Below are positions 4,639 to 42,065 of a DNA stretch of 64,000 nt, piece after piece. Source of the stretch: an uncultured bacterium (GTDB lineage Bacteria > Margulisbacteria > WOR-1 > JAKLHX01); NCBI GenBank assembly GCA_964603025.1, contig CAZRTO010000001.1, positions 8,428-72,427 of the forward strand, given 5' to 3'. Within the stretch, counting starts at the first letter, position 1. Every line of letters starts with the position of its first letter. Both the position numbers and the translations under genes were made by a program. The notes under the pieces were generated by a model. That model was not told where the DNA came from and did not search any database. It saw only the letters and a program-made list of their open reading frames with translations.

Positions 4639-4717
4639 TGGGGTGGTCGACCGGACTCGAACCGGCAGCCTTCAGGGCCACAACCTGATGCTCTAACCAA
4701 ATTGAGCTACGACCACC
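4639..4717 (-). tRNA. tRNA-His (anticodon GTG) with encoded G-1 and CCA
   Basis: Reverse complement GGTGGTCGTAGCTCAATTTGGTTAGAGCATCAGGTTGTGGCCCTGAAGGCTGCCGGTTCGAGTCCGGTCGACCACCCCA. Anticodon loop TTGTGGC, an extra 5' G pairing with C73, and CCA encoded. Confidence 0.85.
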
Positions 4718-4780
4718 ATGCGCAAGGCGCCCTTGCTCCTTACTACTCACTCCTTAAGGAATAAGGAGCAAGGAGTAAGT

Positions 4781-4807
4781 GTTCAATTCCGCTTTGCGGA
4801 ATTGAAC
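4781..4807 (-). other. perfect 11-bp hairpin (gttcaattccg-ctttg-cggaattgaac) abutting 3' end of tRNA-Arg; probable processing/termination structure
   Basis: Exact inverted repeat read directly from the sequence. No U-tract follows on the minus strand. Confidence 0.5.
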
Positions 4808-4881
4808 CGTCCCCGGGGCGAATCGAACGCCCAACCTACAGCTTAGAAGGCTGTTGCTCTATCCAATTGAGCTACGGGGAC
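4808..4881 (-). tRNA. tRNA-Arg (anticodon TCT)
   Basis: Reverse complement GTCCCCGTAGCTCAATTGGATAGAGCAACAGCCTTCTAAGCTGTAGGTTGGGCGTTCGATTCGCCCCGGGGACG. Anticodon loop CTTCTAA. No encoded CCA. Confidence 0.85.
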
Positions 4882-4892
4882 ACAATTGAAAG

Positions 4893-4963
4893 AGCGGGCG
4901 ATGGGATTCGAACCCACGACCCCCTGCTTGGAAGGCAGGAGCTCTACCGCTGAGCTACACCCG
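4893..4963 (-). tRNA. tRNA-Gly (anticodon TCC)
   Basis: Reverse complement GCGGGTGTAGCTCAGCGGTAGAGCTCCTGCCTTCCAAGCAGGGGGTCGTGGGTTCGAATCCCATCGCCCGCT. Anticodon loop CTTCCAA. Confidence 0.85.
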
Positions 4964-4965
4964 CA

Positions 4966-5047
4966 TCTAGCTAATGGCTTATAGCTTATGGCTTATAGCC
5001 GGAAGATCATCGTCTATTATATTAGCTATATGCTATACGCCATTAGC
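4966..5047. repeat. palindromic inter-tRNA spacer element (imperfect ~18-bp inverted repeat plus 10-bp direct repeat ggcttatagc x2)
   Basis: gctaatggcttatagc (4969-4984) is complementary to gctatacgccattagc (5031-5046). ggcttatagc occurs at 4975-4984 and again at 4989-4998. Confidence 0.5.
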
Positions 5048-5057
5048 CATAAGCCAA

Positions 5058-5132
5058 ATCGGGGTGAGCCGATTCGAACGGCCGACCTCTCGCACCCCAA
5101 GCGAGTGCGCTAACCAAACTGCGCCACACCCC
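5058..5132 (-). tRNA. tRNA-Pro (anticodon GGG)
   Basis: Reverse complement CGGGGTGTGGCGCAGTTTGGTTAGCGCACTCGCTTGGGGTGCGAGAGGTCGGCCGTTCGAATCGGCTCACCCCGA. Anticodon loop TTGGGGT. Confidence 0.8.
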
Positions 5133-5268
5133 GTGAACGCCTTCGGCGTTAAGGAACAAGGAGCAAGGAATAAGGAGTAAGAACAAAATCAAATACTCCT
5201 ATTCAGCATTCCAACGCCTAAGCTATCATTAACAAGTATAACATGAGGATATTGGGTGGGATCATAGA

Positions 5269-5342
5269 ATCGGGGAGACAGGATTTGAACCTGCGGCCCC
5301 TTGCTCCCAAAGCAAGTGCTCTACCAAGCTGAGCTACTCCCC
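5269..5342 (-). tRNA. tRNA-Pro (anticodon TGG)
   Basis: Reverse complement CGGGGAGTAGCTCAGCTTGGTAGAGCACTTGCTTTGGGAGCAAGGGGCCGCAGGTTCAAATCCTGTCTCCCCGA. Anticodon loop TTTGGGA. Confidence 0.85.
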
Positions 5343-5468
5343 GTCATCTGAACCTGCGGCTCTCCCGCCAAAGGCGGGATGCTCTACCAAGCTGAGCTAC
5401 TCCCCGTCATCTGAACCTGCGGCTCTCCCGCCAAAGGCGGGATGCTCTACCAAGCTGAGCTACTCCCC
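5343..5468 (-). repeat. two exact tandem 63-nt copies of a 3'-truncated tRNA-Pro-like sequence (pseudo-tRNA repeats)
   Basis: Copy 1 spans 5343-5405 and copy 2 spans 5406-5468, both reading tcatctgaacctgcggctctcccgccaaaggcgggatgctctaccaagctgagctactccccg. They share the acceptor 5' strand, D-arm and part of the T-arm with the adjacent tRNA-Pro(TGG). The anticodon arm is replaced by a GC-rich hairpin, and the T-arm and acceptor 3' strand are missing. Confidence 0.65.
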
Positions 5469-5473
5469 GAAAT

Positions 5474-5509
5474 AAAAAACCGCGCTCTCATTATAACACG
5501 CGGTTTTTT
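5474..5509. terminator. bidirectional rho-independent terminator downstream of the repeat-protein gene
   Basis: aaaaaaccgcg-(14 nt loop)-cgcggtttttt. A GC stem flanked by an A-run and a T-run. Confidence 0.7.
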
Positions 5510-5532
5510 ATGCTTACTGTTACTGGGCAAAA

Positions 5533-6633
5533 TTATCTCAGAGAAACCCTCATTACAGGATATTTATCCGCAGATGACACATCAAAGATAAGCTTGTCAG
5601 GAACCGCCTCTTCCGGCATTACGAACACGTAAGCTGTCTGGAACGTTTCTGCCGGCATGAGCTCCTTTATGTCATCATTATCCGCCCAGTTTACCGGATT
5701 CTTTGCTATATTCTCCATGTAGTACACCCGGTTGGCATCGATCACCATCACCCTGTGATAGTCTCCGCCATACACAGCAGTGAAAGGATCTTTGTTCTTT
5801 ATCTCTACTGTTACAACATAGAATATCGTACCCGCCGGAGGCATGCCGCCCCTTGGATCGGAATTCTTTTTTTCAGCTTTGAGCACCCTAAACGCGGTGT
5901 GTCCGTTGTTCAACCAGGTGTCTACCGGACCTTCCAGCTCGGACAACTGAACGGCGGCTTTCCCCTTTGGGGCCGCTTTTGCCTGCTGCGCTTGATTACG
6001 CTGTATGTTCTGCCAATGCCTGACGACCCTTTGTTTTTCCGCCCGCAGAGCCCTGACGCGGGCTGAGTTCCCCTGAGCTCTGGCTGATGCTATCTGCGAG
6101 TCCAGCGTCTGGAGCCGGGCCCTTACTTCCGCCTGCGTGGACGGCAGCGGCGCGGCCGGCGTCTTGGCCGCAGGAGCGGCCGCCGGAGCCTTACCGCCTT
6201 TTTGTATGCTCTGCCAATGCCTGACGACCCTTTGTTTTTCCGCCTGCAGAGCCTTAACGCGGGCTGAGTTCCCCTGAGCTCTGGCTGATGCTATCTGCGA
6301 GTCCAGCGTCTGGAGCCGGGCCCTTACTTCCGCCTGCGTGGACGGCAGCGGCGCGGCCGGCGTCTTGGCCGCAGGAGCGGCCGCCGGAGCCTTACCGCCC
6401 TGCTGTATGGCCTTCCATCTGTTCAAGGTCCTTTGTTTTTCTGCCTGAAGCTCCTTGACCTTTGCGGTATTGCCCTGCGCCCTGTTAAAAGTGATCTTTG
6501 CATCCAAAAGCTTGATGTAGTCGGCAACTTCCTGCTGCGTAGGCTGTTTTGTCTGGGCTGAAACGGAGGCTATCATAAAGAGAGATAGTATTAGCGCCGC
6601 GGCAACACCTTTCGGGTCGTTTTTCTTTAACAT
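5533..6633 (-). CDS. secreted protein with Pro/Ala-rich linkers, tandem 67-aa helical repeats and a C-terminal DUF4352-like beta-sandwich domain (hypothetical)
   Basis: 366 aa. Signal peptide MLKKNDPKGVAAALILSLFMIASVSAQT. Repeated KAPAAAPAAKTPAAPLPSTQAEVRARLQTLDSQIASARAQGNSARVKALQAEKQRVVRHWQSIQKGG. RBS GGAGG upstream. Confidence 0.6.
   Translation of the reverse strand: MLKKNDPKGVAAALILSLFMIASVSAQTKQPTQQEVADYIKLLDAKITFNRAQGNTAKVKELQAEKQRTLNRWKAIQQGGKAPAAAPAAKTPAAPLPSTQAEVRARLQTLDSQIASARAQGNSARVKALQAEKQRVVRHWQSIQKGGKAPAAAPAAKTPAAPLPSTQAEVRARLQTLDSQIASARAQGNSARVRALRAEKQRVVRHWQNIQRNQAQQAKAAPKGKAAVQLSELEGPVDTWLNNGHTAFRVLKAEKKNSDPRGGMPPAGTIFYVVTVEIKNKDPFTAVYGGDYHRVMVIDANRVYYMENIAKNPVNWADNDDIKELMPAETFQTAYVFVMPEEAVPDKLIFDVSSADKYPVMRVSLR
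6002..6403. repeat. near-identical 201-bp tandem direct repeat (2 copies, plus a diverged third copy to ~6500) inside the secreted-protein gene
   Basis: Landmarks tgtatg(t/c)tctgccaatgcctgacgaccctttgtttttccgcc at 6002 and 6203, and ggctgagttcccctgagctc at 6061 and 6262, both offset by 201 bp. Confidence 0.85.
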
Positions 6634-6773
6634 CTTTTCGTGCCTCCTCGCATGCCAGGGATTATAAAGGATGTTGTAAATATAGCAAAGAGAGCTGTAT
6701 AAATCAACACTTGCCTTTACATGCTTCTATCGGCTTAAAGGCGGGAAAAATTGCATCAAATAATCAGAAGAAA

Positions 6774-6847
6774 TCGGGGCGGCGGGATTTGAACCCACGA
6801 CCTTTCGGTCCCGAACCGAACGCTCTACCAAGCTGAGCCACGCCCCG
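6774..6847 (-). tRNA. tRNA-Pro (anticodon CGG)
   Basis: Reverse complement CGGGGCGTGGCTCAGCTTGGTAGAGCGTTCGGTTCGGGACCGAAAGGTCGTGGGTTCAAATCCCGCCGCCCCGA. Anticodon loop TTCGGGA. Confidence 0.85.
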
Positions 6848-12149: not shown

Positions 12150-12776
12150 TTGACTTCATATACCGCTCATCGTAAAATTGTCCATATGACTACAGCCGTT
12201 CTGCTTATATCAAGCTTCCTGCTGGGATCGGTCCCATTCGGCCTGCTGATAGCAAGGATTAAAGGAGTAGATCTGGTCAGCACGGGCAGCGGCAATATAG
12301 GCGCGACCAATGTTTTCAGGTCCGTCGGAAAAGCCTTCGGGATAGCCGTGCTGCTGCTCGATATGTCAAAGGGCTACATCCCCGTAGCTGTGGCAGGAGC
12401 ACTATCACAGGACCATATTGTCATTATGCTGTGCGGAGCACTCTCGATAGCCGGACATATGTTCTCGCCGTTCATGAAGTTCAAAGGAGGCAAAGGCGTT
12501 GCAACGGGGCTCGGCGTTATATTTGCCATAGCACCAAGACTGTCTCTGCTTGCGTTCCTGCTCGGAATATCGATAATCGCACTGACTGGATATGTTTCCC
12601 TGGCTTCGGTAACGGGATCTCTGTTCTTAAGCATACTTATGATAAGGAGCGGACAGCCTCTGCCTTATGTATGGCTGGTGACAGTTATTACCGCTTTTGT
12701 GCTGATAAAACACATCCCCAATATGAAAAGACTGATGAACGGCACGGAAAACAAGATAAGCTGGAATAAAGAATGA
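12150..12776 (+). CDS. plsY: glycerol-3-phosphate acyltransferase PlsY
   Basis: PlsY motifs LGSVPFGLL and GSGNIGATNVFR. The real start may be the second Met, at 12186. Confidence 0.85.
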   Translation: MTSYTAHRKIVHMTTAVLLISSFLLGSVPFGLLIARIKGVDLVSTGSGNIGATNVFRSVGKAFGIAVLLLDMSKGYIPVAVAGALSQDHIVIMLCGALSIAGHMFSPFMKFKGGKGVATGLGVIFAIAPRLSLLAFLLGISIIALTGYVSLASVTGSLFLSILMIRSGQPLPYVWLVTVITAFVLIKHIPNMKRLMNGTENKISWNKE

Positions 12777-13768
12777 CAAAGATATCGGTAATAGGAGCCG
12801 GAGCCTGGGGAACCACGATGGCAAGCCATCTTGCGGAGAAAGGCTTTGACACCTTCATATGGGCCCTCGAAGAAAAAGTCGTGCTGAATATAAACGGCGC
12901 CAGGGAAAATAATATTTATCTTCCAGGCATCAGGCTGAGCAGCCGCCTAAAAGCCCTCAAGGATATCAAAGAGGCGCTCAAAGGAGCTGATCTGGCGGTG
13001 ATCGCCGTCCCTTCCAAGCATCTTAGAGCAACTTTGTCCCGAACGGAAGGTGCGATCGGAAAAAAAGTGCTTCTCCTTAGCCTGACAAAAGGCATCGAAA
13101 GGGGCACATTTAAAAGACCGTCGGAAATAATATCCGAATCAACCGGAAATACCAATGTCGCTGCGCTTTCCGGGCCTAACCTCTCGCTCGAGATAGCAAG
13201 GGGGCTGCCCGCGGCTTCGGTAGTGGCGGCAAAAGACCCTGCTGCGGCAAAAAAGATACAGGAGATGCTCTCTGGTCCTGCGTTCAGGGTATACACCAGT
13301 GACGACCTCCCAGGCGTTGAGGTCGGTGGCGCCATGAAAAACGTTGTGGCGCTTGCGGCCGGCATATCCGACGGCCTGAACCTGGGCAACAACGCAAAAT
13401 CAGCGCTTATCGTCAGAGGGCTGGCCGAAATAACAAGGCTGGGCCTTGCTCTCGGCGCCAGACAGGAAACATTTGCAGGGCTTTCGGGCATAGGCGATCT
13501 GATAACAACCTGCGAAAGCTCGCTTTCCAGGAACCATACGGTGGGCAAGGAACTGGCAAGAGGAAAAAAGATCAAAGAGCTGCTTCAAAACATGTCGGCA
13601 GTCCCCGAAGGAGTTGAAACAGCCGCATCAGCATTCGAACTGTCCAAGAAACTGGGGATAGATATGCCCATAACGGCGGAAGTCCATTCTGTAATATTTG
13701 AGGGCAAGGACCCTAAAGAAGCAATATCCGACCTCATGACCCGTCCCCACAAAAGCGAGGTATCCTGA
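12773..13768 (+). CDS. gpsA: NAD(P)H-dependent glycerol-3-phosphate dehydrogenase
   Basis: 331 aa. N-terminal ISVIGAGAWGT Rossmann fold. Overlaps the plsY stop, the common plsY-gpsA linkage. Confidence 0.9.
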   Translation: MTKISVIGAGAWGTTMASHLAEKGFDTFIWALEEKVVLNINGARENNIYLPGIRLSSRLKALKDIKEALKGADLAVIAVPSKHLRATLSRTEGAIGKKVLLLSLTKGIERGTFKRPSEIISESTGNTNVAALSGPNLSLEIARGLPAASVVAAKDPAAAKKIQEMLSGPAFRVYTSDDLPGVEVGGAMKNVVALAAGISDGLNLGNNAKSALIVRGLAEITRLGLALGARQETFAGLSGIGDLITTCESSLSRNHTVGKELARGKKIKELLQNMSAVPEGVETAASAFELSKKLGIDMPITAEVHSVIFEGKDPKEAISDLMTRPHKSEVS

Positions 13769-13833
13769 GATCCGTCTGAAATAACCTCCGTTTTTTGCCG
13801 ATATATATACAGTAGGGCATAAAGGAGGAAAAC

Positions 13834-14898
13834 ATGGCAAATTTGACGGCTTCTCAGCAGGCAATGGCCTCGCGGATAACCGCTTTCACATCGCACCACA
13901 TGATAAGAGGACAGCATAACGTTTTCCGTTCACTGGCAAGGGACATGGGACAAATGTCCAGACCGGATATTGTCCGAATCGGAGTTGAAAGCATCCGCGA
14001 ACCGGGAACGGATGTGGAGATCGACCCGTCAGCTAGGCTCGCGCGCCTGATATGCGAGTCGGAAACCTTGTCAAAACTCAAGCCCGGCTCCACCGCATGG
14101 GCATGGGACCAGATCGGAAGGGACCCCGCAGTACGCCCCACTGATTTCGGCAAGGCGGTCGCGGTATTCCAGGAAAGAAAAGCGGACCAGTTGCTGTTAA
14201 ATATTGACAGGACCCATAGGTCATGGATATCCATGCTAAAAAGCGACAATCTGATGGATGAATTGATGGCACTGCACAGAAATGTTCCGCAGGAAGTACA
14301 CGGGGCAACTGGCAACTGGATGGTCTGGGCGGCCAGGGCCAGGGATGGAGTTCAGGAACCTCTGACACATCAAGTGCACAGTTTTTCTAAATACCTTATG
14401 CAGCAGCTTAACAGGGCCCAAACCTGCATATCTCTGTTCGGGAACAACTACTCCACCATTCCCAGCATAGTCGCGCAAATAAGGACCCTGGGCAATGCCG
14501 TGGAGAAAGAAACGAATAAGATACTGTTGTCGGAGGCTCCTGATGAAGAAAGAGCCTATGCCAGGAACGTAAAAGCATCTGTATCCCATGCCATGGACAT
14601 CGCCGAAGCTTACATGAAATATCTGCCTACTGAGATACTGGTGTACTCAGCCGAGGCACCGGAAAACATGGGAGAGGCTGTTGACAGACTATTGGAAGAA
14701 CAGGCTCCCGATATCTCGTTCGCCGATATACTGAAACGCGCTGAAAAACGCGTAAGATGCCCCGGCGGGGATGCCGCAGCGGCAAAATGGTACGCTTTTT
14801 TTGATGAACTTATGCTCCGCGATGGGACTGAGGGATTGATGGGATCTTTTCCAAACAATCCGCTGATAGCAAGCTACACTGCGCTCAGACAGGAATAA
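13834..14898 (+). CDS. hypothetical protein (no recognisable domain)
   Basis: 354 aa with strong RBS AAAGGAGGAAAAC-ATG. No signal peptide or TM segments. No motif I can assign. Confidence 0.6.
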   Translation: MANLTASQQAMASRITAFTSHHMIRGQHNVFRSLARDMGQMSRPDIVRIGVESIREPGTDVEIDPSARLARLICESETLSKLKPGSTAWAWDQIGRDPAVRPTDFGKAVAVFQERKADQLLLNIDRTHRSWISMLKSDNLMDELMALHRNVPQEVHGATGNWMVWAARARDGVQEPLTHQVHSFSKYLMQQLNRAQTCISLFGNNYSTIPSIVAQIRTLGNAVEKETNKILLSEAPDEERAYARNVKASVSHAMDIAEAYMKYLPTEILVYSAEAPENMGEAVDRLLEEQAPDISFADILKRAEKRVRCPGGDAAAAKWYAFFDELMLRDGTEGLMGSFPNNPLIASYTALRQE

Positions 14899-14940
14899 GT
14901 GTACTTGTAAACGGTCCGCGGTCAAAGTAAACTGTTCTTT

Positions 14941-16011
14941 ATGGACACGGAAAAGGCAATGCTTGTCGGGGTAGAGCTTAAAAAGGACAGGTGCTCTATT
15001 GAACCGTCGATGAAAGAGCTGGCTCTCCTGGCAAAAACTGCCGGCGCGCAAATAATAGGCAGCATCACTCAAAGCCGCGAAAAACCCGACCAGAAATATT
15101 TTATCGGCGAAGGAAAGCTGGAAGAACTGGCGTCTGCCGTCGCCGAGTCAGAAGCCGATCTTGTGATATTTGACAATGAGCTCAGCCCCTCACAGGAAAG
15201 GAATCTTGAAGAACGCCTGGGCCTCAAAGTGATAGACCGCACGGAGCTTATCCTTGACATATTCGCCCAGCACGCGTCATCTCATGAAGGCCGTCTTCAG
15301 GTAGAACTGGCCCAGAACCAGTTCATGCTGACCAGGCTGTCCGGAAAAGGCATCATGCTATCCAGGCTGGGCGGCGGGATAGGCACTAGAGGGCCGGGCG
15401 AGACCAAGCTTGAAAAAGACAAAAGACGCATACGCTACAGGATATCGCTGCTCAAAAAAGATCTTGAGAACATAAGAAAAGCAAGGAATACCAGAAAGCA
15501 CACAAGGACCACCTCCGGGATCAAGAACATCTCAATAATAGGATATACGAACGCCGGCAAATCCACGCTCTTGAACTCTCTGACCAAGTCAACCGTGCTG
15601 GCCGAGGACAAGCTCTTTGCGACGCTGGATACGACCACCCGAAAACTGTATATCGCGGAAAACAAGAATGTTCTTTTATCCGATACCGTCGGCTTTATCC
15701 AAAAACTCCCCCATCAGCTCATCGACGCCTTCAAGGCCACTCTTGATGAAGTGGTCGATTCGGACATGCTTCTTCATGTGGTGGACGCTTCCAGCCCGGA
15801 CATGGAAAGGCAGATAGATTCGGTCTACAATGTGCTGGAAGAGCTCGGAGCGATAAGCAAACCGATGATAACCGTGTTCAACAAGGCCGATCTGTTGACA
15901 TCTCCAATAGAAAGAAGCATAGCGGAAAAGTACAGGCCAAGCGTAGTCGTCTCAGCCTACAAAAGGACCGGGCTCCAGCAATTGAAAGAAGCTATATCGA
16001 CCTCCCTATAG
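14941..16011 (+). CDS. hflX: GTPase HflX
   Basis: 356 aa. HflX N-domain, then G-domain motifs GYTNAGKST (G1) and DTVGF (G3), then NKAD. Confidence 0.85.
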
Positions 16012-35622: not shown

Positions 35623-36966
35623 TCAGTAAAATATGGACATAAGCTGGTCGAGCATATCCTCAAAGCCCACTTTTTCATAAGTGCCCTGCTTCAGGAAGTC
35701 GTTAACGGCGTCGATCTTTGCGATAGCTTCGTCTATTTTGGGGTTGCTTCCTTTTACATAAGCCCCTATGTTTATCAGGTCTTCCGCTTCGGAATATCTG
35801 GCCAGGACTTCCCTTAATTTGCCGGCCGCTTCTTTGTGTTCGTCAGAAACAAGGTTGGACATTATCCTGCTTACGCTCGGCAAGATGTCTATCGACGGGT
35901 AATGGTTCTTTGCGGCAAGGGCCCTGGAAAGTATGATGTGCCCGTCGAGTATGCTTCTAGACTGATCGGCGATCGGCTCGTTGAAATCGTCCCCTTCCAC
36001 TAGTATCGTATAAAAAGCCGTTATGGATCCTTTTTCGGAAGTACCGGACCGCTCCATCAGTTTTGGGAGCATCGCAAATACCGACGGGGTATATCCTCTG
36101 GTCGTCGGCGGCTCTCCCGAAGCAAGCCCCACGTCCCTTTGGGCGTAAGCGAACCTTGTCGTTGAATCCATCATAAAGATGACCTTCATGCCCTGGTCCC
36201 TGAAGTACTCCGCGATAGCCGTGGCTACAAAGGAAGCCTTTAACCTGATAAGAGGAGGCTGGTCCGAAGTGGCCACCACCACCACGGATTTTTGCAACCC
36301 TTCCTCTCCTAGAGACTCTTCGATAAAATCCCTCACTTCCCTGCCCCGCTCTCCGATGAGCGCGATAACGTTAACATCAGCCTCAGCGTTCCTTGCGATC
36401 ATGCCCATTAGGGTGGATTTGCCGACGCCTGAACCTGCGAATATCCCCATTCGCTGCCCGCGGCCTATGGTGAGCAATCCGTCTATGGCGCGGACGCCTA
36501 CCCTCAGGATCTCGGTTACTCTGGGACGCTTCACGGGATCCGGAGGGTCCGCATCCATGGGACGCTCTTCTTCCGACAAAAGAGGTCCCTTGTCATCTAT
36601 TGGTTGGCCAAGACCGTTAAGTACTCGCCCAAGCACCTGCTGGCCTACTTTTACTTTCAGGGGATGCCCGGCGGCAAGCACTTCCGAACCCGGGGATATT
36701 CCGGCGGTGGTACCCAAAGGCATGAGCAGAACGCGGCCTTCTTTAAAACCTACGACCTCCGCATAGGTCTGAGATTTTCCCTTTTCCACGCTGATAACAC
36801 AGAGGTCGCCGATGGACACTCCCTGCACCTGCGCCTCGAGTATAAGACCGACCACCTGAATGACCTTGCCTATGACCCTGACCGAATCAGCCTGTTCTAC
36901 CGCGCGGTGGTACTTCTCAAAGTCTATCGTAAATTCTTCGCTGGGAGCGGTTTCAGTCTGAATCAC
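35623..36966 (-). CDS. fliI: flagellum-specific ATP synthase FliI
   Basis: 447 aa. Walker A GSGVGKST on an F1/T3SS ATPase fold. Confidence 0.9.
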
Positions 36967-37720
36967 TGTCCTGCGCCTTCCCTATGGCCTGTTCGATAAG
37001 AGAAAGTTTTGTCGATATTCTGGCATCAACAAAGCCCAGATTTGTCTCTATTACGCATCCCCCCGGGTCCACCTGGCTGTCTTCCAATATGGAGAGGTTC
37101 TTTACTCCGTCAACTATCCCCGCGAGCCTGTCTTTGTAGTCCTTGATGGAATCAATGTCGTCTCGGTTGACCTTTACGATGACGGTCTCCCTGTCACTTA
37201 CCCTGTTTATAGCCTCGGCTACGATATTCATCACGACCTCTTTATTGGTGGACACTTCCGTCCTTATGATCTGTTCCGCTATTTTGAGGGCTAGTCTTGC
37301 TATCTCATTTTCGGAATCTTTTACGATCTTCTTCCTTTGCTTTATCGCGTCGTTCAGCGTCTCCATTGCCTGGTTTATTATGTCCGATATCTGCGACTGC
37401 CCTTCTCTCCTGCCTTCTTCCAGGCCTTCCTCCCTGGCAGATGCTCTGAGCGCTTCCGCTTCCGCCTGGGCGTTGGATATTATATCCTGAGACTCGGATT
37501 GCGCCTGTTCTATTATCTTTGAGGCTTTTTCGTACGAGGACTCGACCATATCTTCACCGCCGGACACGTCCTCCATGAGGCTGTCCTGATCGGGCTGAAC
37601 AATATCGTCTGCCGGCACGTCCTCCTGCTGTACATAGGAAACGGCCTGCGGCCTAGGAGAAGCATGCCCTACGTCAAGGTAGCCTTTCTCGATTATCTTG
37701 CTTTTCTTTATCAGTGCCAT
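36953..37720 (-). CDS. fliH: flagellar assembly protein FliH
   Basis: 255 aa. Charged coiled region [21 protein letters not shown] and a FliH C-terminal domain. Confidence 0.75.
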
Positions 37721-37722
37721 TA

Positions 37723-38265
37723 TCAGTTCAAAGCCATCCTTTCAAGCCTTCCGGAAAGTATCTTCACCACGGACTCTTTAACCTGCTCCCGGACCGGAGG
37801 GTTCTTGAGGGACTTGAGCATCCTCTCAAGATCGGACCTTCTTTCGGTCATAAAAGACAGGACTTCCTTGCGCTGCACTTCAGGCAACACGGAAAGCACG
37901 AAAGCTACCACCCAGACCCTTTCCGCCGAAAGGGCAGCGGCTATTTTTCTGGGCTGCGAATAAAAAAGTATGTCATACGGGCTCCTCGGTGATTCCTGGA
38001 CGGGAGCCTTATCCTGTGCGCCGGTCGGAGTATACGGTTTTTTCTCGGCGACCGGAGCGGCCTTTGCCGAAGGAAGCGTCATGAAGCCGGAAAATTCCTC
38101 AAGCACCGAGCTGATCAGCTCCGGGGACGGGGCCGGAAGATTGTTCATGCCTGATGTTATCGCATCGGACAGATCCTCCGGAAGGAACTTGAGTATCTCC
38201 GACGAGATCTCCGTTCCTAACAAAGAGAGAAGTATAGTGGCTTTTTGTCTTCCGGTGAGAACCAT
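37723..38265 (-). CDS. fliG: flagellar motor switch protein FliG, short form (N- and middle-domain only)
   Basis: 180 aa. FliG_N motif LTGRQKATILLSLLG. A FliG_M-like segment PRKIAAALSAERVWVVAFVLSVLPEVQRKEVLSFM. No C-terminal torque domain. The ORF is bounded tightly by the fliF stop and the fliH start. Confidence 0.65.
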   Translation of the reverse strand: MVLTGRQKATILLSLLGTEISSEILKFLPEDLSDAITSGMNNLPAPSPELISSVLEEFSGFMTLPSAKAAPVAEKKPYTPTGAQDKAPVQESPRSPYDILFYSQPRKIAAALSAERVWVVAFVLSVLPEVQRKEVLSFMTERRSDLERMLKSLKNPPVREQVKESVVKILSGRLERMALN

Positions 38266-39812
38266 TACTGCTTATTCTCCTCTTCTTCCGTCAGCCATTT
38301 TTCTATGAGTTTGGCCACCTTTTCCGGGGACCTGGCGACGGTGTTCCTTACCTGGTCAACCGCCGACGGTGCCGCAGCCCCTCTGGAAAGAGGGACCGTT
38401 TTTCCGGGAACAGGACGATTTGGTTTTTTCTTGCCTCTCCTGCGGATGATCCTTCCGAGTATCAACAGCAACAGGAATCCTCCGCCTCCCCACAACACTG
38501 CGGGATTGGCCTGCCGCAAGGCCGAAACTATCATAACGACCGGTCCTGCGGTATCCGACACAACAGCCTCCTCGGTAGATGAGGGTTCGGGGGTCGAGAT
38601 CGCTCCTCCTATGGTTTCCGGTCTCGCTGCCGTCGCATAATGGAACGGCACCTGCCTTATAACTATTCTGTCCCCCCTAAGGCTGTTATATGGGAGTGCC
38701 GAAGCCACCATATCCGACGTGGTCTTTTTTAGCTGTTCGGTCAGGTTAAAACGGTTGTCAACAAGGATTATCACCGTCATCTTGGTAATGCTCTCGTTGA
38801 AAAGCTCTATTTCGGTCTTCTTTGTATCGGCAGGCCGTTTCTTCCTTCCGGGCGCTTCATAGTCCTCGATATCCAGGCTCACCTTTACCAATATGCTGTT
38901 CGGCGGATAGAACCTGTTCACTATTGTCTGCGCCTTGGAAGAAAGAGTGTTCTCCATTTCTTCTTTTGCCTTCAAAGCCGCCAGGGCTTTTTCCTCCGGT
39001 GTTTTCGGGAGCATCTTTTCCGTGCTCACGGTCTCGACCTCTTTGGTCGGGAGCTGAGCTTCTGGCTGTTCCGGCATTTTTGCCGGCTTTATCACGTCGA
39101 ACCTGTCCTCTTTTTCCTGCGGAAATATGGGAGGAACTGAAGCGGCCTCCGGCGTAACGGCCTCCGGGCCTGTGAGTATGTTGCCGTAAATATCTACTAT
39201 GCTCACGTTCTCGGGCCTGAGGTTCTCGACGCTGTGGGACACAAGACGCACGATACCGTTCACCTGTTCCCTGGAAAGCCTTCTCCCGACCTTGAGCTGA
39301 AGGAGGACCGAAGCGGTTACTGGGACCTGGGTCACCTCAAAAAGAGTGGTCTGAGGCATCACTATCTGAACCCGGGCATCCTGCACAGCATCTATCTTCT
39401 TTATAGTTCGGGCCAGCTCTCCTGATATCGCCCTGACAAGCTGTATGCGTCTGTCAAAATCCGTCGTCCCTAACCGTGATTCATTGAAGATCTCCCAGCC
39501 TACAGAGCCCCCTACCGGAAGGTTTTTCTGCGCAAGCCCCAGCCTGGCTTCGTCAGCTTTGTCCTTGGGAACAGCGACCGATGTGCCGCCATCCTTTATC
39601 TGATACGGGATCTTTTGCTCTTTCAGCTGGGCCACAACATCCGCGGAATCTTTCAGTTCAAGATTGGAATATATCACCACATAACCGGAATAAGGGTCCC
39701 TGACGCCGCACGACCTTAAGAAGCCCAGCACAAATACAAGCGCGATAACGACGACAACGGACGCCATTATCAACAGCCGTCTGGCTTCAGATCCCGCTAC
39801 CGCTGATCCCAT
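38265..39812 (-). CDS. fliF: flagellar M-ring protein FliF
   Basis: 515 aa. N-terminal TM segment and YscJ/FliF periplasmic domains. Confidence 0.85.
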   Translation of the reverse strand: MGSAVAGSEARRLLIMASVVVVIALVFVLGFLRSCGVRDPYSGYVVIYSNLELKDSADVVAQLKEQKIPYQIKDGGTSVAVPKDKADEARLGLAQKNLPVGGSVGWEIFNESRLGTTDFDRRIQLVRAISGELARTIKKIDAVQDARVQIVMPQTTLFEVTQVPVTASVLLQLKVGRRLSREQVNGIVRLVSHSVENLRPENVSIVDIYGNILTGPEAVTPEAASVPPIFPQEKEDRFDVIKPAKMPEQPEAQLPTKEVETVSTEKMLPKTPEEKALAALKAKEEMENTLSSKAQTIVNRFYPPNSILVKVSLDIEDYEAPGRKKRPADTKKTEIELFNESITKMTVIILVDNRFNLTEQLKKTTSDMVASALPYNSLRGDRIVIRQVPFHYATAARPETIGGAISTPEPSSTEEAVVSDTAGPVVMIVSALRQANPAVLWGGGGFLLLLILGRIIRRRGKKKPNRPVPGKTVPLSRGAAAPSAVDQVRNTVARSPEKVAKLIEKWLTEEEENKQ

Positions 39813-40978: not shown

Positions 40979-41737
40979 TTACTTCAGCTTTTCTTTGAGA
41001 TGCGTGATCGCCCTGGATATAAGACGGTTCACCTTGCTGCGGGAAAGCTTAAGCTCCGCGGCGATCTCTTTCTGGCTCACGCTTTTCCGGAAGAACATTT
41101 CAAGCGCGGTCCTCTCAAGCTTCGGCAGCTCTTTTATCTCTCTGTTGAGCCTTTCCTGCAGTTCCGAAGCTTCGGAATCCTCTACCTGGGTCCTTTCCCC
41201 GGATACCTGAACTTCAGTATTCTCTGTAAGCTGTTCCAGGGAGACAAGATACATCAGCGCAGAAGCCGATACTATCTTTTGTATCTTTGACACGGCGGAC
41301 TTGAATTCGCCTTCGCTGAGCTTTTTCTTTTCCAGCATCTTAGCGTCCTTTTTGGACATTCCGGACTGCTCTTTGCCTTTCAGGACCGCGGAATAACCTT
41401 TTTTAGCCAGATCGCGCACCATGACCTGTATCCTGTAAGGCACCGGATTATAGCATTTGAGTCCGTCGAGTATCTCTCCTCTTACGCGGTACGAGGCATA
41501 AGTCTCGAATTTTACGCCCCTTTTAGGATCAAAATTATCCCAGGCTTTCATCAGCCCCACCATGCCGTCGCTCACGAGATCGTTATAATCTATGTTGGGC
41601 GGAAGTCCCTTGCCGGAGATCATGGAAGCTATGGAATGCACCAGGGGCATATATGCCTCCATTGCCACAGGAGGCCTGAAAGTCGTCTGCTGGGCCGCCG
41701 TTTTTTTGTTCTTTTTGGCTATCTTCATCGCTGACAT
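40979..41737 (-). CDS. fliA: RNA polymerase sigma factor FliA (sigma-28)
   Basis: 252 aa. Sigma-70 regions 2, 3 and 4 (YASYRVRGEILD...; region 4 HTH SQKEIAAELKLSRSKV). Embedded in flagellar genes. Confidence 0.8.
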   Translation of the reverse strand: MSAMKIAKKNKKTAAQQTTFRPPVAMEAYMPLVHSIASMISGKGLPPNIDYNDLVSDGMVGLMKAWDNFDPKRGVKFETYASYRVRGEILDGLKCYNPVPYRIQVMVRDLAKKGYSAVLKGKEQSGMSKKDAKMLEKKKLSEGEFKSAVSKIQKIVSASALMYLVSLEQLTENTEVQVSGERTQVEDSEASELQERLNREIKELPKLERTALEMFFRKSVSQKEIAAELKLSRSKVNRLISRAITHLKEKLK

Positions 41738-41738
41738 A

Positions 41739-42065
41739 TCACATCCCTCTCAAATCACCGCCGGACATCTTAGCTTCCTTGGCTATACTCTCCTCCACAA
41801 GCCGGTTAAGGCCAAAAACATCGCTCTCCGCAAGCTGTCTGATCATTTCATCAGTGAGCATGTCCGAGTATAAACTGTTGTTAATATTATCATCTAACAT
41901 GTCGTTCTTCCACTGGTTCTTGAAAATTTCCTTTAACATCCCCTGCAAAAATACCGATGAGAACGCAGCGGCATATTCTTTGCTTGTTGCGTTCTGTCCT
42001 CCCGGCGCAGACATGCCGACTGGAGCATCCGGCACAGCCCCTATGGGAGGCAAATACATAGACAT
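41739..42065 (-). CDS. flgJ: rod-binding protein (FlgJ N-terminal-domain-like, no muramidase domain)
   Basis: 108 aa. FLQGMLKEIF...LYSDMLTDEMIRQLAESDVFGL matches the Rod-binding profile. Confidence 0.55.
   Translation of the reverse strand: MSMYLPPIGAVPDAPVGMSAPGGQNATSKEYAAAFSSVFLQGMLKEIFKNQWKNDMLDDNINNSLYSDMLTDEMIRQLAESDVFGLNRLVEESIAKEAKMSGGDLRGM

Follow-up and report, generated by a model that had tools for sequence, protein, structure and literature searches.

Between gpsA and hflX, a 64,000-nt stretch of DNA from an uncultured bacterium (contig CAZRTO010000001.1, positions 8,428 to 72,427; hereafter the window) carries an open reading frame (ORF) for a 354-aa protein without annotation, preceded by a sequence that resembles the −10 element of sigma-28 promoters. 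What is this gene, and what places it behind such an element, next to the gene for a ribosome-splitting GTPase? Our analysis suggests that the ORF is probably the non-essential, clade-restricted and exchangeable cargo of a three-part module lodged between gpsA and hflX. First, a conserved promoter of non-sigma-70 type (TGAAAT-N16-CGATATAT) would be read by a sigma factor of the FliA/WhiG family; second comes the cargo gene with its strong ribosome-binding site (RBS); third, a sigma-70-type promoter would let hflX again be expressed independently, from a near-leaderless mRNA, after the insertion had severed it from an ancestral plsY-gpsA-hflX operon. DNA of relatives would replace the cargo by double crossover, both flanks being conserved. 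The parts of the locus are these:

12186 (probable start), plus strand: plsY (Pfam match), the gene before gpsA
12773-13768, plus strand: gpsA (Pfam NAD_Gly3P_dh_N, E 1.6e-46; NAD_Gly3P_dh_C, E 5.5e-55), the conserved left flank of the slot
13769-14940, plus strand: clade-specific module, the insert from gpsA to hflX, with predicted upstream promoter, cargo gene and predicted hflX promoter
13777-13782, plus strand: −35-like hexamer TGAAAT, without change in every orthologous locus, in L016 and at a second site in L013
13783-13798, plus strand: spacer, fixed at 16 nt in every match, of variable sequence, pyrimidine-rich (CCTCC and a T-run)
13799-13806, plus strand: −10-like element CGATATAT, which holds the conserved core of GCCGATAT
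13812-13833, plus strand: putative 5′ untranslated region of about 22 nt, containing the RBS, from a transcription start site (TSS) predicted from the sequence
13834-14898, plus strand: cargo ORF, 1065 nt including the stop codon, ATG start, 354 aa
14905-14933, plus strand: predicted sigma-70-type promoter of hflX (TTGTAA at 14905-14910, N17, TAAACT at 14928-14933)
14941-16011, plus strand: hflX (Pfam GTP-bdg_N, GTP-bdg_M and MMR_HSR1), the conserved right flank of the slot

A clade-restricted ORF between gpsA and hflX

The ORF, its RBS (AAAGGAGG, 13821-13828), the octamer GCCGATAT (13797-13804), which ends 30 nt 5′ of the ATG, and the 42-nt spacer between ORF and hflX (14899-14940) all lie in the sequence where the original prediction had placed them. 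The setting is the same in every ORF-bearing genome: plsY, gpsA, ORF and hflX follow one another on the plus strand, and the minus strand carries recJ, a biotin-carrier protein gene and efp, as well as genes for DAHP synthase, chorismate mutase, BirA (birA) and an SLH protein.

The named sequences closest to the window's HflX all come from metagenome-assembled genomes of Candidatus Margulisiibacteriota or Saganbacteria (60-65% identity), and HflX is 74-98% identical across the cargo-bearing clade. Among the loci that we compared (L numbers), the module was found in the window, L001-L010, L016, L018 and L019. It is absent from L015 and L017, in which only about 1-2 nt separate gpsA from hflX and no ORF lies between them. 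The next-closest lineages (L015, L016 and L017), with HflX 65-68% identical, have the same neighbourhood and a different slot content. The ORF thus has no stable association with hflX: L015 and L017 lack it, and in L016 and L019 other genes stand in its place. Because the slot is empty or otherwise filled in sister lineages, the ORF appears to belong to a segment inserted into what was once a plsY-gpsA-hflX operon. A scan of GTDB for loci of the family yielded one that was then new, L007, and a metagenome scan yielded one, on a JGI contig already known; a single sampled locus presumably originates from an anaerobic-digester metagenome. As sampled here, the ORF family occurs only within a single clade of Candidatus Margulisiibacteriota.

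A conserved element upstream of the ORF

We aligned the intergenic region between gpsA and the ORF from seven orthologous loci, in which ORF identity falls to about 31%, and on this basis redefined the upstream element as TGAAAT-N16-CGATATAT (13777-13806). Within its −10-like part, CGATATATA is invariant in the seven loci, with a variant CGATGTAT in L016 and CGATATAT at the second site in L013. The core CGATAT is invariant in the seven orthologous loci, in L019 and at the second L013 site, and reads CGATGT in L016; the "GC" with which GCCGATAT begins varies among the loci (GC, CC, AT, CT and GT). The sigma-28-like −10 of the original prediction is therefore upheld in its CGATAT core, which is invariant and has sigma-28 spacing, and not in its leading "GC". 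The −35 region had been called a weak match; it is in fact the invariant TGAAAT, with GAAA where sigma-28 promoters have TAAA. Between the −10 and the RBS, too, the seven aligned loci are conserved.

The frequency of the motif was then assessed in 83,148 nt of this genome, made up of the window and about 19 kb from L011 (left) and L013 (right). The 14-base pattern TGAAAT-N16-CGATATAT occurs twice there, versus no occurrence in 30 shuffles, and even with up to one mismatch the shuffles average 0.03. Across the 259 kb of DNA retrieved, matches with at most one mismatch lie only at cargo-bearing slots and at the second L013 site, all with a spacer of 16. That second exact copy (L013 1226-1255, plus strand) is intergenic, about 8 kb past the right end of the window, and faces a 179-aa gene without annotation (L013 1358-1897), for which Pfam, PHROG and PADLOC give no match. 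The CCTCC and the T-run of the spacer are missing from the second site and from L016, so TGAAAT and CGAT[AG]TAT suffice to define the motif. Judged by the alignment and the shuffles, the upstream element is a conserved phylogenetic footprint, beyond chance.

Looser matches were not retained. A third site, CTTGAAAG-N17-CGATATCT (L013 7172-7135, minus strand), has two mismatches, and the shuffle expectation of 1.8 puts it at chance level. The operon that it heads consists of two genes without annotation (433 and 249 aa) and then clpB, and the site would matter if the sigma factor proves stress-related. GCCGATAW occurs 12 times in the window, versus 4.9 expected from dinucleotide shuffles; we rejected this excess as evidence of a regulon, nearly all copies being inside coding sequences and without a −35 partner. 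It probably reflects Ala-Asp-Ile codons, as in the copy at 14722-14729 within the ORF. A match to the sigma-28 pattern within flgF (46333-46307, minus strand) was also set aside, as it is coding and the relaxed pattern is not enriched.

Unrelated genes behind one predicted promoter

Where HflX is 74-82% identical, the ORF is 33-70% identical, and the ORF evolves about 10 times faster than HflX. Its sequences fall into two deep types, type I with the window protein and P0002-P0006 and type II with P0009 and P0131-P0133. The members of one HflX subclade (D), whose HflX proteins are 95-98% identical, carry both; P0006 and P0133, for instance, are 33% identical, and the corresponding HflX proteins 98%. 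The comparison of L004 with L008 locates the change. Their flanking DNA is about 90% and their HflX 96% identical, with the ORF at 37% protein and about 45% DNA identity, and the drop is confined to the ORF, has sharp boundaries and recovers at the spacer. The proportion of synonymous differences (pS) is 0.79 in the ORF, versus 0.38 in hflX. Because its synonymous sites are saturated, the ORF alleles are older than their flanks.

Genes of other families occupy the same place. In L019, the HflX of which is nested in the clade, the same promoter (GCTGAAAT-N16-CGATATATACACAGAGGGGTATA) precedes an unrelated 260-aa gene (hhalign probability 0.1%). In L016, from a more distant lineage of Margulisiibacteriota, TGAAAT-N16-CGATGTAT stands before a gene resembling alanine dehydrogenase (AlaDH)/PNT (L016 3699-4964, plus strand), with 306.9 bits to TIGR00518, under the cutoff of 391.85. 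The G+C content at third codon positions (GC3) of the cargo is below that of its flanks in L004 (0.385 vs about 0.56), L008 (0.454 vs 0.60) and L019 (0.349 vs about 0.51), and equals it in the window, L001 and L005. By these comparisons, the ORF is exchangeable cargo behind a conserved promoter.

With regard to how the exchange takes place, no integrase, att-like repeats or mobile-element genes were found at the loci, the neighbours of which are all housekeeping genes; double crossover through the conserved flanks would for this reason be the most economical mechanism. Borders of integron or transposon type were rejected, as no flanking direct or inverted repeats are common to the loci. Such replacement through the flanks would account for the presence of two diverged allele types, a 260-aa gene and an AlaDH-like gene behind one promoter.

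A bolder version of this explanation is conceivable, and we offer it tentatively. The junction of gpsA and hflX would then be a long-lived, integrase-free "expression socket", in which an alternative-sigma promoter (TGAAAT-N16-CGAT[AG]TAT) and a near-leaderless hflX promoter stay fixed even across lineages with HflX only 65% identical, and in which promoterless, unrelated cargo genes are exchanged between the two again and again by recombination. The 354-aa family would have a new fold and its two ancient allele types would be maintained by diversifying or frequency-dependent selection, and the promoter would define a regulon of modest size, not confined to motility, under a divergent FliA/WhiG sigma factor.

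A predicted separate promoter for hflX

The 42-nt spacer behind the ORF holds the predicted hflX promoter, whose TAAACT ends 7 nt 5′ of the hflX ATG. Across loci, the distance from the end of this −10 to the ATG or GTG is 7-8 nt, and CTTGTAA and GTA(A/G)A(C/A)T are invariant with fixed spacing in seven loci irrespective of cargo. The −10 reads TAGAAT in L019 and TAAGAT in L016, which has the same layout. No Shine-Dalgarno (SD) sequence precedes hflX in these loci, and the hflX mRNA is probably near-leaderless. The conserved promoter of its own suggests that hflX is expressed independently of co-transcription with the ORF.

Co-transcription of the ORF and hflX had been proposed in the original prediction on the grounds of their proximity. 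Our terminator scan found no terminator between the two, and read-through from the cargo promoter into hflX is for that reason possible; that hflX should need such read-through is not supported, given its own promoter.

Promoter class and candidate sigma factor

Promoters of the sigma-28/SigD class have the consensus TAAA-N15-GCCGATAT (PMC5200910, PMC2532724), and the sigma-28 consensus is also given as TAAAGTTT-N11-GCCGATAA (PMC7286023). Written in the same way, the upstream element is GAAA-N15-nnCGATAT, with the same distance from the −35 AAA to the CGA core and with CGATAT invariant. Its geometry thus best matches sigma-28/SigD promoters. A factor of the corresponding type is encoded in the same window, as had been proposed:

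40979-41737, minus strand: FliA/WhiG-family sigma factor (best NCBIfam match FliA_WhiG, 141.9 bits vs a cutoff of 189.6)

Unlike the factors of established sigma-28 systems, this candidate scores under the NCBIfam FliA_WhiG cutoff. Its best relatives in the PDB are 6pfv/6pfj, which we take to be WhiG complexes, and then FliA (E 1e-22 to 1e-17, full length), with a large gap from these to SigF, RpoS and RpoD. Encoded 26 kb from the element, it is the candidate by which the element would most likely be read. The sigma gene lies within an early flagellar operon, between a 108-aa ORF (41739-42065) and flgB, and is a divergent member of its family.

The other promoters of this lineage offer a measure of how unusual the element is. 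Those of plsY, efp, fliK, flgF and hflX are sigma-70-like and canonical, unlike the upstream element: the plsY promoter is conserved as TTGACT-N17-TA(A/G)AAT in the same loci, and those of fliK and flgF read TTGACT-N17-TATCAT (48379-48351, minus strand) and TTGCTT-N16-TATAAT (46592-46565, minus strand). Because the sigma-70 promoters of the lineage look so ordinary, the ORF promoter would appear to be of another class.

A sigma-28-like promoter invites a different account, in which the ORF is a late gene of the flagellar (sigma-28) regulon and forms a two-gene operon with hflX, tying ribosome rescue to motility. The geometry of the element with its invariant CGATAT core, the lack of a terminator between ORF and hflX, and the presence in the window of the FliA/WhiG-family gene and of a flagellar cluster (fliK, flgF, flgG, flgA, flgH, flgI, flgB, flgC, fliE, fliF, fliG, fliH and fliI) are all consistent with it. 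The flagellar genes in the 83 kb are, however, of the early class only and have sigma-70-like promoters. No flagellar operon of the window uses the motif, and, unlike sigma-28 promoters, the element has no gene behind it that can be recognised as flagellar or as one of chemotaxis in the DNA examined. Moreover, hflX has a conserved sigma-70-type promoter of its own and no SD, unrelated genes including an AlaDH-like enzyme interchange behind the upstream promoter, and the ORF is absent in sister lineages. We therefore consider this two-gene flagellar operon unlikely.

Promoters of the extracytoplasmic function (ECF) factor SigW have the form TGAAAC-N16-CGTA, those of sigma-32 a −35 of CTTGAAA and a −10 of CCCCATnT, and hflX is a heat-shock gene in E. 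coli. It is conceivable, if distinctly improbable, that the element belongs to another alternative sigma factor of ECF or heat-shock type and that the slot is part of a stress regulon fitting hflX and clpB. Like SigW promoters, the element is bipartite, with the same 16-nt spacing, five of six −35 positions in common and a −10 that begins with CG; its CTGAAA or TTGAAA resembles the sigma-32 −35, the weak third site heads the clpB operon, and the heat-shock character of hflX would fit. Nonetheless, the element has an invariant AAT and CGA in place of the ECF hallmarks AAC (−35) and CGT (−10), and no ECF sigma/anti-sigma pair was seen nearby. Sigma-32 calls for a C at the invariant G of the −10 and for a spacing shorter by 1-2 nt, the third site with its two mismatches is at the level that shuffles produce, and hflX is served by a sigma-70-type promoter.

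We regard it as very unlikely that the element is instead an unusual sigma-70 promoter or the binding site of a regulator. CTGAAA does match TTGACA at four of six positions (TTGAAA of L008 at five), and AT-rich hexamers follow (GATATA, TATATA, TATACA), but a simple sigma-70 scan did not call the element. The best such reading, CTGAAA-N18-GATATA, is without the final T, the better hexamers are 20-24 nt off, canonical and conserved sigma-70 promoters serve other genes of the same loci, and sigma-70 has no need of the invariant C, G and A of CGAT. Unlike the typical site of a dimeric regulator, the element is not palindromic.

A compact protein family without recognised fold relatives

The original prediction had described the ORF product as a protein with no placeable motif and no transmembrane segment. 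Both parts of the description hold, and library searches and fold searches of PDB and BFVD returned no remote homologue with a housekeeping function that would speak against it. The protein is predicted to be soluble (isoelectric point 6.0), with a maximum of 0.85 in 19-residue Kyte-Doolittle windows. It has no significant Pfam match (best E 0.15) and no NCBIfam match; the family reaches only E >= 0.09 in PHROGs and E 0.034 in PADLOC. Against PDB sequences, a first search with the ORF protein gave E >= 0.12 only, and phmmer or profiles of 7 and 10 sequences gave E >= 0.002, over at most 85 residues. Foldseek found nothing with E <= 1e-3 when an AlphaFold2 (AF2) model was compared with PDB and BFVD. 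Marginal matches to GST_C_4, BRIC1, globin, CheA P1 and ZorA (E from 0.002 up, at most 95 residues, under curated cutoffs) were dropped.

Relatives of the ORF itself are few. A word-indexed search of 5.8 billion proteins gave six clusters, and HMMER, run exhaustively against 1.84 billion representatives, brought in one genuine relative, P0009. A second hit, P0010 (E 1.9e-5), was rejected: it is a 1984-aa eukaryote-like FAD oxidase in which a 43-residue match occurs once per repeat of a protein repeated four times. With a profile search, the family came to 10 clusters of 350-362 aa, all with intact frames and with identity down to 30%. Across these 10 sequences 54 columns are invariant, many of them polar, and the recurrent motifs are TAWAWDQIGR, SVSHAMDIA, LPTE[IV]LVYS and RxxCPxG. 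The AF2 model, built on six sequences, has 22 helices and a mean local confidence (pLDDT) of 78.5. As modelled, the protein is a soluble all-alpha member of a new clade-restricted family.

The ratio of non-synonymous to synonymous substitution (dN/dS) is 0.116 for the ORF against L001 (neighbouring genes, 0.10), 0.27 against L005 and 0.055-0.27 in near-identical pairs. By this measure and the intact frames, the ORF is a genuine protein-coding gene under constraint. Invariant polar residues are retained in both allele types, among them R43, D92, Q93, R96, R126, H128, D138, N139, H252, E267, E281, R306 and C309. As these residues are kept in both types, an enzyme, or a protein that specifically binds a ligand or partner, is favoured over a purely structural one, and expression of this putative function would be tied to an alternative sigma factor.

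One candidate partner is HflX itself, the ORF product being for example a ribosome-associated factor dedicated to it. The ORF does adjoin hflX on the same strand in every ORF-bearing genome. Against this, L015 and L017 keep hflX without the ORF, unrelated genes take its place in L019 and L016, the two genes have separate promoters, and the ORF evolves about 10 times faster; we consider a dedicated HflX partner extremely unlikely. A spurious or decaying frame, to which the lack of a domain and of homologues beyond a tiny clade might point, is effectively refuted by intact frames of 350-362 aa in 10 clusters, 54 invariant columns, dN/dS values far under 1, the conservation of the strong RBS and the confidence of the helical model.

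Folding of the intergenic RNA

In minimum-free-energy folds, the CCTCC and T-run of the promoter spacer pair with the SD of the cargo in seven of seven clade loci, and L008 and L019 show matching changes in this pairing. The modelled value for an unpaired SD is 0.12-0.57 in read-through RNA versus 0.52-0.97 in promoter-initiated RNA, with the same direction in eight of eight loci including L016. These folds raise the candidate role of the spacer as an anti-SD arm, by which RNA read through from gpsA would be translated poorly and promoter-initiated RNA freely. The spacer-SD duplex is no better than those of composition-matched shuffled spacers (p 0.02-0.99), the RNAalifold consensus is at −3.4 kcal/mol with a covariation term of −0.12, and single-sequence z-scores run from +0.4 to −2.2.

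A comparable arrangement is the "fold-back inhibition" of read-through transcripts in IS10/Tn10. As there, sequence 5′ of the TSS of the element can pair with the SD of the cargo; unlike there, the pairing here is without statistical support. We also considered the intergenic block as a terminator or riboswitch and rejected this, as there is no Rfam match, the consensus structure is a weak one and the scan yielded no terminator. At the gathering threshold, Rfam matches in the window are tRNAs only.

Weighing the module against known systems

Several points weigh against the reading of the ORF as exchangeable cargo behind a promoter of the FliA/WhiG type. Unlike sigma-28/SigD promoters, the element has an invariant G for T in its −35, matching three of four positions of TAAA, and the "GC" before CGATAT is not conserved. 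The motif stands before none of the flagellar operons inspected (early genes, 83 kb), and the gene behind its second copy is likewise without annotation. Both promoters and both TSSs are deduced from sequence conservation alone. The AF2 model was made from only six sequences, so that the failure to match a fold could be partly model error. Finally, all of the DNA comes from metagenome assemblies, in which contigs may be chimeric, although several alleles recur on independent contigs.

The exchangeable-cargo module has partial counterparts. Flagellin and O-antigen loci are hypervariable and are exchanged by homologous recombination through their flanks. The gpsA-hflX slot resembles such replaceable loci between core genes in its conserved flanks, sharp boundaries, older alleles and deviant cargo GC3. 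It differs from them in that the cargo is a single cytoplasmic gene and not a surface structure, the promoter is kept within the conserved flank, and unrelated genes share the socket. The diversity of flagellin has been reviewed elsewhere (PMC7018530). Integron platforms are alike in that a fixed promoter (Pc in integrons) expresses exchangeable promoterless cargo. Unlike them, the slot has no integrase, attI/attC or flanking repeats and only one cassette position, and exchange is presumably homologous rather than site-specific. The main addition to the original prediction is the place of the ORF as interchangeable cargo in a socket that keeps its promoter.

If the module is as we describe it, it provides a defined motif for an alternative sigma factor, probably of FliA/WhiG type, in the sister group of Cyanobacteria, and an example of a conserved promoter serving as a recombinase-free socket, which bears on how accessory genes are wired into regulons. 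It would also add a compact new protein family, with no fold relatives detected and a rate of evolution about ten times that of its neighbours, and a case of an operon insertion compensated by the gain, in hflX, of a promoter abutting the start codon. The clade is rare (10 protein clusters) and belongs to a candidate phylum without a cultured representative, and the practical impact is limited.

Other features of the window

Three further observations concern the flagellar cluster and the left part of the window. The fliK and flgF promoters share TTG(A)CTTTTTCCGC directly at and after the −35, which may be a site for a common regulator. The fliG ORF (37723-38265, minus strand), between fliF (38265-39812) and fliH (36953-37720), encodes 180 aa with FliG_N and part of FliG_M and leaves no room for the C-terminal torque-generating domain of FliG; fliG may be truncated or split, or a second copy may lie elsewhere. 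A cluster of five tRNA genes lies at 4642-6847 on the minus strand, and L011, a 148-kb contig from an independent assembly of the same genome, ends within this cluster, at about window position 5100.

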